Of a stretch of 64,000 bases of DNA, positions 38,667 through 52,461 are shown piece by piece (the first letter of the stretch is position 1; every line of letters begins with the position of its first letter). Where the stretch lies: the IMG/VR virus record IMGVR_UViG_3300010882_000012; one strand, given 5' to 3'. This stretch comes from a virus (lineage: Duplodnaviria > Caudoviricetes). The notes beneath the pieces are model-generated. The model worked only from the letters and a program-made list of their open reading frames with translations, did no database searches and had not been told where the DNA came from. The position numbers were made by a program, and so were the translations under genes.

Positions 38667-39938
38667 TTAACGCTCTATAATTTCAACGATATAACGAATT
38701 GTTGACTGTTCTGTAGAATAAACCATAAACTCATTATTACGAATTGAAGTGCCGGCATGAGCATAAACACTATCAAAACCTTCACGATCAAGTTGTTTTT
38801 TATTTAAATCATAACAAGCCGATGTATGATTATAGATATGTTTTTGATTGCCCACATGAACATCATAGATTGCTAAGAAAGCTTTTTTGCTACAACCCTT
38901 TGCCCAATAAGAACCAGAAAGAGAAGTATATCCAATAGATTTTTGTGCTTTATCTGCAAAATAAACAGAATTTCCATACATTGCACCTGTAATTATTACA
39001 CCCGCCGGACGTATTAAAAGTCCGGTTTGCAAGATGTTCATCCAATTTTCATTTCTGCTACCATGCCAAAACAGTTCGCATTTTTGGTTTTTGGCTTTTG
39101 CAACATAGCTCTTAAAGTTTCCTTCTGTTTTTTTGTTTACCACAGAAAAAGCTCTTTTGTACTGACCGGAATTGTTTCCCATCATTTTCTTAATGAGTTC
39201 TGCTTCTTTAGAAGACACTTCTTTAACTTCTAGTCCAAGTACCTCAAGCATGTCCATAGTGCTCTTAGAATTGCCCGTTTGCGTCCTGGTGGCTTCTTTT
39301 TGTTTCTTTATTGCTTCAACCTGACCCGCCATAACGTCCAAAAGTTTTTGTTCATCATCTAGCATTCGTTGTAATGATGAGGTAGAGTATCCGCTTTCTA
39401 CAAGATGGTTTTTTACGTGAGCCATTTTTCTCGGTACTGTTCGATACAATTTCAACAAACAATCATTAATAGTTGTTGAAGTACTTTGATTTCTTAAATG
39501 ACCAACCAAGTTGTCAAGGATTTTTTGAGCCTCATCAACTTGTGCTTGTGTAACATCTTCTTGAGTTACAGAATAGTTTTCTTTAATGGTTTTGTTTGCA
39601 TATGCTTGGAGTTCGTCAATGAGTTGACGCACCATAGCATTCTGGATGGCGGTTACTTGTGCTCCGGTTGTAGCATCTTTGATATCGGCCTCAATCTTTT
39701 CAGTATAGAGGTGTGTGATATCATTGTAACCTTTTTTGGTTTTTTCACGATACTTTTTATCCCAATCCGACATAGGATAAGAGTGCTCTATGGAGGTAGA
39801 TTCTATCCTGCCATAAACCACTTTAAAATTTCCATCGTTCTGCTCGAACATATGGTAAAACTTGTTGTTATTGTCCCCTGTAACACAAACCAGTTTTTTA
39901 ACTTGTTTGCCTGGTACCGAGTAATCTGATATTTTCAT
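38667..39938 (-). CDS. PARP-family ADP-ribosyltransferase with N-terminal WGR-like domain
   Basis: NNNKFY...VVYGRI...EKTKKGY (WGR-like); FWHGS, GAMYGNSVYFADKAQKSIGY, RNNEFMVY = H-Y-E triad. Confidence 0.92.
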   Translation of the reverse strand: MKISDYSVPGKQVKKLVCVTGDNNNKFYHMFEQNDGNFKVVYGRIESTSIEHSYPMSDWDKKYREKTKKGYNDITHLYTEKIEADIKDATTGAQVTAIQNAMVRQLIDELQAYANKTIKENYSVTQEDVTQAQVDEAQKILDNLVGHLRNQSTSTTINDCLLKLYRTVPRKMAHVKNHLVESGYSTSSLQRMLDDEQKLLDVMAGQVEAIKKQKEATRTQTGNSKSTMDMLEVLGLEVKEVSSKEAELIKKMMGNNSGQYKRAFSVVNKKTEGNFKSYVAKAKNQKCELFWHGSRNENWMNILQTGLLIRPAGVIITGAMYGNSVYFADKAQKSIGYTSLSGSYWAKGCSKKAFLAIYDVHVGNQKHIYNHTSACYDLNKKQLDREGFDSVYAHAGTSIRNNEFMVYSTEQSTIRYIVEIIER

Positions 39939-48637: not shown

Positions 48638-48889
48638 TTACAGTAATTCTAAGAAATTAGCATTACCCCAACCGTCTGCTCTTCTAATCCAAGCATTGTG
48701 GCTGGTAAATTCTTGATCTCCCCAATAAATGGTCCGATCTAAGTTAACTTTAACATTAATAGTATGGATATCTTTGGTCACCTCTGCTATAGTACCTTCT
48801 TCCATTTGTCCGAAAGTCATAGTTTTGCATTTTCTACCGATGAGGTCATTACGGAGGATTCCATTAGGTGCTAATTCTTGTACTGTCAT
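48638..48889 (-). CDS. Hypothetical protein (start corrected to MTVQE)
   Basis: ATG follows the promoter leader. Confidence 0.7.
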   Translation of the reverse strand: MTVQELAPNGILRNDLIGRKCKTMTFGQMEEGTIAEVTKDIHTINVKVNLDRTIYWGDQEFTSHNAWIRRADGWGNANFLELL

Positions 48890-48914
48890 GATGTTTGAAT
48901 TTTGATTTGATATC

Positions 48915-48993
48915 GTAAAAATACAGCTTTTATCCTTACGATAAGATTTAAAAAGAAAAAAGTTACTAACAATTTGCATGCTAGTAACCTTTT
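48915..48993 (-). promoter_or_regulatory. Promoter motif copy 14 fused to terminator of the NAD operon
   Basis: AAAAGGTTACTAGC-atgcaaatt-GTTAGTAACTTTTTT. Confidence 0.85.
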
Positions 48994-49040
48994 CCACAAT
49001 CAAAAATTCAAAAAAGTTCTCTATTCAAGAGAATTTATTA

Positions 49041-49874
49041 TTAGATCCATTCTATTACAGTCGGATCATAGTTTTTGTACATCGGAGTTTTGTAATCCTT
49101 TTCTGTTAATTTGTACCATTGAAAGTGTTTTGCAAGTTCGTTAAATTCTTTCACAACTTCTTTTTTAATTTTCTTGTTGTCAAAACGATAGTGTGAAAAA
49201 GTCATACCACAATCTGAATCAGTGTAAGAATCACATGCCGATTTTGTAATTTTAATAGCTTTTTCTATTGCTTCTAAAACAGTCTCTCTTGTTACTAATG
49301 GTATTTCTTCAACTGGTTCCGGTTCATTAATAACATTGATGTGATTAAGTTTTAAAATTGCAATTGCTTGACGATGAGATTCATCTGTAACACAAGCACA
49401 ACAACTTGCATCTACAGTAATTTTGGCTTTACGATAGATTGCTGATAAGATAATAGCATTTTGTAAAACACAAATTCCGGTACACAATCCAAAAAGTTCA
49501 ATTTCATCAATATCCTCTTCATAGATATTATAGGATTCAAAAAACTCTTGCCATTTTACAGTACCATGTGCAAACTTTGTAATAGCACTTGAATTTTGTT
49601 CTAAGAGTTCTTTCAGTTCCGGATGTAATTCAGCTCCAGGAGTATCATAAACACAATGACATACACGTAAGTCTCTACCTTCTAAAGTATGCTCATACTT
49701 GTATGGATCCATTGGATGATTATGGTTGTCAAAAGAATGTGCAATAAAATCTCCATTCTCTATGGCTTTTTCAATTTTAGTTTTACAGTTTGCTATGATA
49801 GCATGTGCATGTGGAGAACCTAAAGTTCCTGTAATAAAATCATTTTCTAAGTCGATTGCTAAAGTAATTTTCAT
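49041..49874 (-). CDS. pncA: Nicotinamidase (isochorismatase family) with extra C-terminal domain
   Basis: AIDLENDF..GTL, metal-binding D-x-H and HC, TKF, GLCTGICV catalytic Cys; adjacent to nadE. Confidence 0.8.
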   Translation of the reverse strand: MKITLAIDLENDFITGTLGSPHAHAIIANCKTKIEKAIENGDFIAHSFDNHNHPMDPYKYEHTLEGRDLRVCHCVYDTPGAELHPELKELLEQNSSAITKFAHGTVKWQEFFESYNIYEEDIDEIELFGLCTGICVLQNAIILSAIYRKAKITVDASCCACVTDESHRQAIAILKLNHINVINEPEPVEEIPLVTRETVLEAIEKAIKITKSACDSYTDSDCGMTFSHYRFDNKKIKKEVVKEFNELAKHFQWYKLTEKDYKTPMYKNYDPTVIEWI

Positions 49875-49886
49875 ATGATTAAGTTT

Positions 49887-50780
49887 TTAAAGTTGAACAT
49901 TTTTAATTAATTTGAACATTGGTATGGCTTTAAGTTTATGCTGCGACATCAGATTTCTTCCCATTACTGTTTTCACTATACCGGGTCGGATATTTTCATT
50001 TGCAATAAATTCCGGTGTCGCATAAAGTATGAAATCATCAAGTTGTTCATATGAAAATCCAAGTTCTTCTTCATCAGATTGACCTTCCCAAAGATCAGCA
50101 CTTGGTTTTTCATTGATGATAGATTTCGGAACACCAAGATATTCAGCAAGAACATAAACCTCTCTTTTTGTGCACCAACCGAGAGGATTAAGGTCACATG
50201 CACCATCGCCCCATTTTGTAAAATAGCCACAATAACGTTCTGAAAGATTGCCGGTACCTATTACAAAACGACTCATGAGTTGTGCCATTTGATAAAGGTG
50301 ATTCATTCGGATACGAGCACAAACATTAGCTTTTGCCAGATTTGCTGCTTCTGGTGTAAAAGATTTATCCCAAAAAAGACTATTTTCTGTAACAAGCATA
50401 GAATTGACTGTTTTGGTAATATTAAAAGTTTGCCATTCAAAGTCAAACTTGTCAACTAATTTCACACAGCGCTGCATAGAAGAGTTGTTTCCTCTTGACA
50501 TGGATTCTCCATAAGGCATGGATATGAGTTGCACCGGTACATTTGCAATTTGACAAAGTCTTGCAACAACAGAGCAATCTACACCGCCTGACATGCCAAG
50601 TACAACACCTTTGCGATTTGCTTTTGCTACAGCATTTGCAATCCAATCTGACATAAGATTAGCATAATGTGCAACATTTTTACTATCAATAATTTCTTGT
50701 TTTAGTTGAGCCGGCATGGGACAACTTTTGTTTAAATTTTCAGTATTTTCCATTTTTGTAATTTTAGAGGTTGTAAACAC
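49887..50780 (-). CDS. nadE: NH3-dependent NAD+ synthetase
   Basis: VLGMSGGVDC, ARIRM, GTGNLSE..GYFTKWGDG, KPSADLWEGQSDEEELG. Confidence 0.93.
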   Translation of the reverse strand: MFTTSKITKMENTENLNKSCPMPAQLKQEIIDSKNVAHYANLMSDWIANAVAKANRKGVVLGMSGGVDCSVVARLCQIANVPVQLISMPYGESMSRGNNSSMQRCVKLVDKFDFEWQTFNITKTVNSMLVTENSLFWDKSFTPEAANLAKANVCARIRMNHLYQMAQLMSRFVIGTGNLSERYCGYFTKWGDGACDLNPLGWCTKREVYVLAEYLGVPKSIINEKPSADLWEGQSDEEELGFSYEQLDDFILYATPEFIANENIRPGIVKTVMGRNLMSQHKLKAIPMFKLIKNVQL

Positions 50781-52461
50781 GTTTCATTTCTTTATTATAG
50801 AGAACTTTAATTTCATCCCATGAATTTAAGTAATAAAATTCTCCATCTTTGTAGAATTCTTTGAGTAAGTTTTTGTCTCCATATGCATCTGCTTCTTCAG
50901 GAGTCAAGTTGTCAATCATAGCATAGTTGTTTTTAGATTCATCCCAAATAACAACCGGTATACCGGTAGGAGATTTTTTAAAACTGTTCTTTTCAGATTT
51001 TACGAGTTTTTGAATTTTTTTGAAAACACCTGACATGATTTCTGCAATTCCTTTTAATGCAAAACCAAACGTATCTCTCGTAACATACTGATAAGTGAAT
51101 GAACCAATTCCAAAGCTAACGTTAATACTTGCAAATCCTTTGTCTCTAAGACGTTTGCAAATTTTGAAACATCTCTCAATTGTAATAGCATCACCGTAAG
51201 TAATTCCAATATGAGAATCATGTTCCTTAAAACCGTTTGCGTTTACAGTGCCACCGAATTCATTCCAAAGTGCTTCACACAATCCCAAATCTTCTACAGT
51301 CGGTGTGTACTCTTCATAGATATCTTTCCATGGATGATAAGCCGAAATCGAATGATCATCTTCTCTTGTTACTTTCCACCAGCTTCCATCTTTTAATCTG
51401 AAAATAACGCCTAATCTCATTTCAGCAAAACCATTATTATGATAGTATTTCTTTGCTTCTGCCATGGTTAAGAAAATTTTTGTTTCTCTTCCACAAACAA
51501 CTTCAACCGGATCACCACTGTCAGGGCGGATGAAAACTTTTCCAGGTCTTGATAAAATTTGAGGTTTTATCTCCGGCAATACAGTAGAGATAACATTCCA
51601 AAAATCGTAAGTATCTGAAACAATTGAGATGTTGCCGCTTGGATACTTCTTTGTAATAAGAGTAAGAAATCCACGAACCTCATCAATTCCCCAACTACAC
51701 ATTACAGAATGTTCGGTTGACGGATTACAAGAAATAGCTCCTTTTGGTTTTTGATAAAAAGCTTTAAGATAATTACGGACAGGAACAGTAGCTGAAACAT
51801 TAAAAGCAAGTAGATGTCCAGGACCTGTGCGATATGCTGCTTCCGGTTGATTCATGCCTCTCATTGAAAAGTCGCCGGCTTGATTATCAACTCGGACTTC
51901 ATCTACACCTGTTTCTCTTGCAAATTGGATGAGAATTTTTTTGTAAACGGATGAGATAGTCCCGGATGTCATTGGACTCCAGATGTAAGAAGAAAGTTGA
52001 GTTTCGATATAGCCAGGAATCCAGAAAAATCTTGGATCTGTATTCTCAATAGTAAACATTGCAACGCCAATAGGTACAAAAGTACCTTCCGCAAGTGCTT
52101 TTACCTTAATAGGAAGATATCCTAAAGCATGTAAAGCCCTAACATGTTCAGAACCATGATTAGCCGCCCATTCTGGATTTGTCTTTTTAAAGATATCTGT
52201 AATGGTCTCTTCGTATTCTGCAACTACATCTTCAACAGGTCTAGAGAAAAAGTAATCTTGGAAATTTTGTGTGATTTCTGCTAAAGCTCCTTGTAAAGAG
52301 TAAAAGCATACATGGTTAATTCCTTCTGCTCGTGACATCCGTGGAATCCAAGTTTCTAAAATCCATTCAATACCATCAGGATATTGGGACATGTGACAAA
52401 TTTTGTAGACATCTGTCATGTCCATTGGATTTTTGATCATTCTGTCGTTTAATTGAAACAT
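50764..52461 (-). CDS. NAMPT/NadV-family pyridine transferase, probably nicotinate-accepting
   Basis: TDVYKICH, DFSMRG, STEHS, SIVSDTYD, FIRPDSGDP, YGDAI, FGIGS, TRDTFGFA; SAT in place of the usual TDT. Confidence 0.9.
   Translation of the reverse strand: MFQLNDRMIKNPMDMTDVYKICHMSQYPDGIEWILETWIPRMSRAEGINHVCFYSLQGALAEITQNFQDYFFSRPVEDVVAEYEETITDIFKKTNPEWAANHGSEHVRALHALGYLPIKVKALAEGTFVPIGVAMFTIENTDPRFFWIPGYIETQLSSYIWSPMTSGTISSVYKKILIQFARETGVDEVRVDNQAGDFSMRGMNQPEAAYRTGPGHLLAFNVSATVPVRNYLKAFYQKPKGAISCNPSTEHSVMCSWGIDEVRGFLTLITKKYPSGNISIVSDTYDFWNVISTVLPEIKPQILSRPGKVFIRPDSGDPVEVVCGRETKIFLTMAEAKKYYHNNGFAEMRLGVIFRLKDGSWWKVTREDDHSISAYHPWKDIYEEYTPTVEDLGLCEALWNEFGGTVNANGFKEHDSHIGITYGDAITIERCFKICKRLRDKGFASINVSFGIGSFTYQYVTRDTFGFALKGIAEIMSGVFKKIQKLVKSEKNSFKKSPTGIPVVIWDESKNNYAMIDNLTPEEADAYGDKNLLKEFYKDGEFYYLNSWDEIKVLYNKEMKRVYNL

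Follow-up and report, generated by a model that had tools for sequence, protein, structure and literature searches.

The stretch of viral DNA analysed here (hereafter, the window; 64 kb) comprises bases 63901–127900 of a 146-kb IMG/VR virus record whose estimated completeness is 56%. On its minus strand, at 49041–52461, lie three contiguous and tightly packed open reading frames (ORFs) encoding a Namat-family transferase, the NAD+ synthetase NadE, and the nicotinamidase PncA. Together with a distal Adps-like gene of the same phage, this trio probably forms a deamidated version of NAD+ reconstitution pathway 1 (NARP1); we put the probability of this reading at about 0.6. NARP1 itself consists of Adps and Namat and is known from Bacillus phage SPbetaL1 and Escherichia phage Bas63 (Osterman et al. 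2024; structures 9w5x/9w5w, PMC12774641). In the version proposed here, PncA would convert nicotinamide to nicotinate, Adps would pyrophosphorylate ADP-ribose to ADP-ribose pyrophosphate (ADPR-PP), the variant Namat would join nicotinate and ADPR-PP into nicotinate adenine dinucleotide (NaAD) in one step, and the NH3-dependent NadE would amidate NaAD to NAD+. The evidence for the pathway is comparative: gene identities, substitutions in the pyridine pocket, retained clamp and catalytic residues, and co-occurrence of the genes. From it we infer all substrates and products, as well as a role in counter-defence. The features of the locus, in window coordinates, are as follows.

50764–52461, minus strand: Namat-family transferase with a variant pyridine pocket, 565 amino acids (aa) (P0003); NF006629, 411 bits; phrog_448, 490 bits
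49887–50780, minus strand: NH3-dependent NAD+ synthetase NadE, 297 aa; TIGR00552, 225 bits (cut-off 63.65)
49041–49874, minus strand: nicotinamidase PncA (isochorismatase fold), 277 aa; PF00857, 62.9 bits
48955–48995, minus strand: terminator-like hairpin after pncA, with a stem of 17 pairs and then a T run (consensus scan only)

The genes of the transferase and NadE overlap by 17 nt, and a gap of 12 nt separates those of NadE and PncA; the terminator-like hairpin (48995–48955) would close the transcription unit. The first-pass annotation of the window, made from the sequence alone, had read the three genes as PncA, NadE, and a NAMPT-family protein, and the family matches agree with it in both content and position. 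A megablast search of the 3.4-kb trio stretch against phage records yielded zero matches.

The transferase is of the Namat type

Judging by its sequence, the large enzyme is a Namat-type protein and not a Nampt, which corrects the NAMPT-like label of the first-pass annotation. Its closest solved match is SPbetaL1 Namat (9w5x/9w5w, 433 bits, 42% identity), and 9w5x is also the top Foldseek match, with a TM-score of only 0.41–0.49. What defines Namat enzymes is a pair of elements holding the adenine of ADPR-PP, a clamp helix GSX-phi-X-phi-X-phi-TRD with aromatic X and a stacking arginine in the clamp loop (PMC12774641). Both are present here, as the motif GSFTYQYVTRD at residues 453–463 and as Arg44, and the clamp positions are invariant or nearly so in an alignment of 16 sequences of the clade described below. 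The catalytic residues His251, Arg312, and Asp314 (His245, Arg306, and Asp308 of SPbetaL1 Namat) are kept, and so is the pyridine-stacking pair Phe198 and Tyr19 (Phe189/Tyr15' of SPbetaL1 Namat). In the public gene call, the protein has 542 aa (P0006) and starts 23 codons too late, which removes Asp17 and Tyr19; in Namat, the residues equivalent to these two stack against the pyridine ring.

Membership in the PncB (NAPRTase) family found no support, as there was no match to PF17767, the weak N-terminal match was to PF18127 (NAMPT_N), and the best family was NF006629, which is of the NadV type. Assignment to the Nampt of NARP2 failed as well: the site of human Asp219 holds alanine, the adenine clamp is present, and the module has no Nmnat. 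We file the enzyme as a Namat variant and not as a nicotinamide ADPR-transferase, because the site of SPbetaL1 Asp215 is occupied by Ala224, and by alanine or serine throughout the clade. Its predicted activity is that of a nicotinate:ADPR-PP transferase making NaAD.

The AlphaFold2 monomer model of the transferase has a predicted local distance difference test (pLDDT) score of 78, falling below 50 in the pocket loops 195–224, 238–242, and 452–466. Its domain arrangement fits 9w5x poorly (root-mean-square deviation of ∼21 Å), and the model was not used to place Ala224 or Arg229. Compared with SPbetaL1 Namat, the protein carries an insertion of ∼65 aa (residues ∼326–391; window 51286–51486, minus strand), modelled with good confidence as a small beta-rich subdomain; a comparable insertion is seen in some longer canonical homologues (alignment A2, consensus).

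Pocket substitutions define one clade

The strings HLLAFNVSATV and GDF, on which the first-pass annotation built its case, are present in the transferase. In a gap-free local alignment, Asp215 of SPbetaL1 Namat (9w5x; human Asp219) falls on Ala224, exactly as had been proposed, and His187 (human His191) falls on Gly196; there is no Asp or Glu within five residues of position 224. In addition, Ala242 aligns with Ser248, and Ile220 is replaced by Arg229, so that a basic residue is gained. In the crystal structure of SPbetaL1 Namat, Asp215 hydrogen-bonds nicotinamide, and the D215A substitution cuts NAD+ output 8.1-fold (PMC12774641), while human Asp219 is the determinant of NAMPT substrate specificity (PMC7096376). 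Loss of the aspartate and gain of an arginine are what would be expected if an amide substrate were swapped for a carboxylate.

The Asp215 site holds Ala or Ser in 137 members of the clade and Asp or Glu in 145 canonical sequences. Since the change is fixed across all 137, it is not due to chance. Column-by-column comparison of the two sets gave nine discriminating positions, including H187G, D215A/S, A242S, and the gained Arg229. Among the 120 best homologues from a collection of 5.8 billion proteins, all but six have the changed pocket (98 with G/A/S, 9 with G/S/S, and a few others), and the six canonical H/D/A sequences are at the bottom of the list. When 181 sequences were placed in a tree, the 41 variant rows all grouped to the same side of one branch (support 99). 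The pocket changes thus define one clade, which is found in phages and bacteria. A scan of IMG/VR with a single protein returned one locus only, a canonical one.

The distal Adps-like gene

As the first-pass annotation had observed, the 64-kb window has no recognizable Adps or NMNAT gene. It had suggested searching the rest of the genome, and this search returned an Adps-like gene and a weak NadD-like one, both outside the window (G000:C1 below denotes coordinates in the whole record).

The Adps-like gene (G000:C1:141107-142066) lies 25 kb beyond the trio and encodes a 319-aa PRPS-like protein. The protein belongs to phrog_619 (E 1e-36), as does SPbetaL1 Adps, to which it is 29% identical, its similarity to archaeal PRPS being about equal. 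It is below the canonical Prs cut-offs (TIGR01251, 72.6 bits vs 113), has the loop DDLCDLGGTF (a DDxCD PP-loop), and matches 146 Namat-linked Adps genes in the collected loci. The trio's closest relative is found on a metagenome contig of 5 kb, in the order Namat-NadE-PncA-x-Adps, with identities of 66% for Namat, 63% for NadE, 56% for PncA, and 43% for the distal Adps-like protein. Because this 43%-identical orthologue adjoins the trio in the closest relative, we count the distal gene as a putative part of the module.

The NadD-like gene (G000:C1:11199-11846, plus strand; L170:1420-2067) is ∼100 kb away and encodes a divergent nucleotidyltransferase with a match to PF01467 (CTP_transf_like, 37 bits) and the motifs GGKFSPFHSGH and SATEIR. 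Its best solved matches are NadD (E ∼0.01), at scores far under the curated cut-offs (e.g., 26 bits vs 187). It may be an adenylyltransferase of nicotinate mononucleotide (NaMN) or nicotinamide mononucleotide.

NadE and PncA

The phage NadE is a single-domain protein (PF02540, 219.8 bits) with the PP-loop SGGVDC and no CN-hydrolase (glutaminase) domain. Its start codon is GTG, and an ATG is found nine codons in.

The isochorismatase fold of PncA spans residues 1–185 and contains the Asp-Lys-Cys triad and the Asp/His/His metal site of nicotinamidases. In alignment A4, the seven PncA proteins that accompany variant Namats all share Asp8, Lys100, and Cys135, as well as Asp49, His51, and His73. 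The solved relatives include the pyrazinamidase/nicotinamidase structures 3pl1 and 3s2s; the NCBIfam equivalog score is 26 bits, below the cut-off of 174. A C-terminal extension of ∼90 aa (residues ∼186–277; window 49041–49320, minus strand) has no family match and is lacking in the 56%-identical orthologue, as it is in the other PncA proteins associated with variant Namats.

Gene neighborhoods

The first-pass annotation had named co-occurrence of the pocket variant with pncA and nadE as a point to survey. We scored 80 loci from IMG/VR, 80 from species-representative genomes, and further ones from phage records and metagenome contigs for the type of the pocket and for neighbouring Adps, NadE, and PncA genes, and compared 174 loci.

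Variant pocket, 34 loci: Adps in 32, NadE in 31, PncA or PncA-like in 33
Canonical pocket, 140 loci: Adps in 131, NadE in 0, PncA or PncA-like in 0

Among the canonical loci are the systems of SPbetaL1 and Paenibacillus foliorum, both validated by experiment. The Fisher values are 3e-31 and 9e-35 and overstate the number of independent events, the variant being one clade. Across these loci, the comparison supports the central proposal of the first-pass annotation, that is, a deamidating route in which a NAMPT-family enzyme would use nicotinate supplied by PncA and NadE would amidate the product. In 31 variant loci other than that of the phage under study, including the closest relative, Adps is adjacent or near. 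The linkage is kept through at least eight gene orders in phages, Bacteroidota, Clostridia, and a Nomurabacteria metagenome-assembled genome (MAG), and with two types of NadE. No variant operon contains NadD. Representative arrangements are the following.

Phage Phass-1: PncA-Adps-Namat-x-NadE
Faecal phage contig (MT835544): Adps, then after ∼0.9 kb Namat-Macro-NadE-PncA
IMG/VR phage: Adps-Namat-NadE-PncA
Sphingobacterium and Myroides: Adps-Namat-NadE-PncA-like-NrtR
Clostridia MAGs: a divergently transcribed glutamine-type NadE in place of the NH3 type

The PncA-like gene of many bacterial operons encodes a 303-aa protein with no clear Pfam match. Profile-profile comparison links it to PncA with a probability of 96.8%, and the catalytic and metal-binding residues are kept.

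The TAG-recoded gut phage Phass-1, by its gene content, holds the full four-gene module. In its record (L003, OQ749652.1: 96860-97783 and 99791-100756), the entry WIC39685.1, labelled a 'hypothetical protein', matches PF02540 at 153 bits and is an NAD synthase, and the 'ribose-phosphate pyrophosphokinase' is Adps-like. The variant operon of Clostridia MAGs (L101, L104) and of an unassigned metagenome contig (L183) additionally contains genes for a vWA/TerF-like protein, a PP2C phosphatase, and a protein of ∼580 aa.

Two groups of loci narrow down the interpretation. Three Sphingobacterium genomes encode, away from the operon, a glutamine-type NadE with a housekeeping role as well as a canonical PncB; the NadE of the operon is therefore a second copy dedicated to it, and making NaMN does not require the variant enzyme. 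Two members of the clade have a decayed clamp (Arg40 lost; GSLYRIRD and GSLYYVRD) and have PncA as their sole partner, Adps and NadE both being absent; these are the metagenome contigs L180 and L181, carrying P0081 and P0088. This sub-branch probably represents nicotinate phosphoribosyltransferases that arose from Namat and use phosphoribosyl pyrophosphate (PRPP). As its members keep PncA alone, the pocket seems to be tied to PncA, and hence to nicotinate; as they lack Adps and NadE, the clamp seems to be tied to both, and hence to ADPR-PP and a dinucleotide in need of amidation.

Proposed pathway and alternative explanations

The first-pass annotation left two donors for the transferase, PRPP giving NaMN or ADPR-PP giving NaAD. 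The second of these is better supported by the sequences, because the adenine-clamp signature is present and Adps accompanies the clade. A nicotinate:ADPR-PP transferase forming NaAD in one step would be an undescribed activity. We lean slightly towards the broader view that it marks out one more pathway of NAD+ reconstitution, made up of PncA, Adps, the variant Namat, and NadE and shared by gut phages and bacteria, with an NrtR-controlled ADP-ribose recycling operon as the bacterial form and with specificity set by a charge swap, Asp to Ala/Ser plus the gained Arg. The module may serve counter-defence, by analogy with NARP1. Alternatively, it may maintain NAD+ for the PARP of the phage itself (window 38667–39938). 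As for the extra ATP cost of this route, we can only speculate that the hosts rapidly deamidate nicotinamide, that the charged base is trapped in the cell, or that the irreversible last step exerts a pull.

Several observations weigh against the deamidated NARP1. Namat also takes PRPP in vitro (PMC12774641), and given this activity and the weak NadD-like protein of the phage, NaMN might be a further product. In this phage, 25 kb separate the Adps-like gene from the trio, which it does not adjoin. D215A leaves SPbetaL1 Namat with residual nicotinamide activity, so the variant may still accept nicotinamide. The role suggested for Arg229 has no geometric support, as the low-confidence regions of the AlphaFold2 monomer are exactly the pocket loops. 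The variant is a single clade, and the large co-occurrence counts correspond to few independent events. Finally, five faecal phage contigs carry PncA with no Namat, NadE, or Adps within reach, and PncA alone is therefore not diagnostic.

The PRPP activity, the NadD-like protein, and the position of the Adps-like gene would also fit a phage-encoded Preiss-Handler route, in which nicotinate and PRPP (from the Prs-like protein or the host) yield NaMN, NadD (the NadD-like protein of the phage or the host enzyme) converts NaMN to NaAD, and NadE finishes; the decayed-clamp members with PncA alone probably work in this way. We nevertheless consider such a route unlikely for the phage trio, as the adenine-clamp residues would not be expected to be (nearly) invariant across the clade if ADPR-PP were not used, Adps is found at 32 of the 34 variant loci, no NadD accompanies them, Sphingobacterium already has a canonical PncB, and the phage NadD-like gene is both 100 kb off and far below the family cut-offs. 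Less probable still is that the enzyme is an ordinary Namat using nicotinamide and ADPR-PP, with PncA and NadE as unrelated helpers that boost Preiss-Handler salvage of the host or feed the phage PARP and ADP-ribosyltransferases. The residual activity of the D215A mutant, the presence of an NAD+-consuming PARP, and the occurrence of PncA alone in some phages and NadE alone in many are consistent with this, but it leaves unexplained why NadE or PncA is near none of the 140 canonical Namat loci and near almost all variant ones, and why several pocket positions, the gained Arg among them, shifted jointly and were then conserved; moreover, PncA would destroy the enzyme's own substrate. The differences at several pocket positions could also mean that another pyridine or base is bound and that the product is not an NAD+ precursor, which we regard as highly improbable given the consistent link of the clade to PncA, NadE, and the NAD regulator NrtR.

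Relation to known systems

The module resembles NARP1 in the transferase fold (at 42% identity), the catalytic His/Arg/Asp, the adenine clamp, the stacking Arg, the phrog_619 Adps-like partner, and the logic of rebuilding NAD+ from ADP-ribose. It differs in the substitutions Asp215 to Ala, His187 to Gly, and Ala242 to Ser, in the Arg at 229, in the strict association of the variant clade with NadE and PncA, neither of which occurs at any of the 140 canonical loci compared, and in the predicted product, NaAD instead of NAD+; also, Adps is unlinked in this phage. Similar to Preiss-Handler salvage (PncA, PncB, NadD, and NadE), nicotinamide would be deamidated, nicotinate coupled, and the product amidated by NadE last. 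By contrast, the module has no PncB-family enzyme and no NadD, and a Namat-type enzyme using ADPR-PP would bypass both NaMN and NadD.

Known salvage enzymes also form the core of other modules by which phages restore NAD+, namely NARP2 (Nampt and Nmnat, Vibrio phage KVP40), NARP3 (PnuC and NadR; PMC13464706), and NARP1-AP (NARP1 with a Macro phosphatase; bioRxiv 10.64898/2026.01.28.702374); the RyDEP glycosidase has been described alongside the NARP pathways. Like NARP1-AP, one variant locus, MT835544, also has a Macro-domain gene. Unlike the present module, none of these three uses nicotinate, PncA, or NadE. With NARP3 and NARP1-AP already published, the label of a third route given in the first-pass annotation is out of date.

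In bacteria, NrtR-regulated prs-nadV operons were described in 2008, the pairs being read as PRPP plus nicotinamide (PMC2330246, in the part consulted). The bacterial members of the variant clade are likewise found in operons of Adps, Namat, NadE, PncA-like, and NrtR genes, whereas that part of the 2008 description lists no prs-nadV operon with NadE or PncA. The 2024 preprint reporting the discovery of NARP does not mention nicotinate, PncA, or NadE, and in literature searches pairing Namat, ADPR-PP, or NAD+ reconstitution with nicotinic acid, NaAD, NadE, or nicotinamidase, we found no description of a nicotinate-using Namat or of a NARP linked to PncA or NadE.

The system thus appears to be a NARP1 variant present in phages and bacteria, and it predicts a new enzyme activity. 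If this is true, NAD+ metabolism would include a new reaction, in which deamido-NAD is made directly from ADPR-PP and nicotinate, and phages would have a fourth kind of NAD+-restoring pathway. It would also explain the second, dedicated NadE beside the 'prs-nadV' pair in some organisms, and suggest that phages match their way of restoring NAD+ to hosts where nicotinamide quickly undergoes deamidation or is lost. In addition, the sequence rule G/A/S vs H/D/A plus Arg229 would re-annotate hundreds of 'nicotinate/nicotinamide phosphoribosyltransferase' genes.

Other genes of the phage

The product of the PARP gene (38667–39938, minus strand) is 423 aa long, contains the PARP catalytic domain (PF00644, 76.7 bits), and is an NAD+ consumer; the gene is ∼10 kb from the NAD+ module. 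The gene downstream of it encodes a 421-aa protein without a Pfam match. We looked for Macro and Nudix genes in the phage record and found none. A CTP_transf_like gene located 2 kb from the Adps-like gene was considered as a candidate Nmnat or NadD and rejected, as it encodes CoaD.

G000:C1:144127-144621 (L169:1408-1902), outside the window, minus strand: pantetheine-phosphate adenylyltransferase CoaD; TIGR01510, 148 bits (cut-off 103)

Directly downstream of pncA is an ORF (48638–49003, minus strand) with a DUF7258 match (62 bits). Its annotated TTG start overlaps the terminator-like hairpin, and the true start is therefore probably further in.

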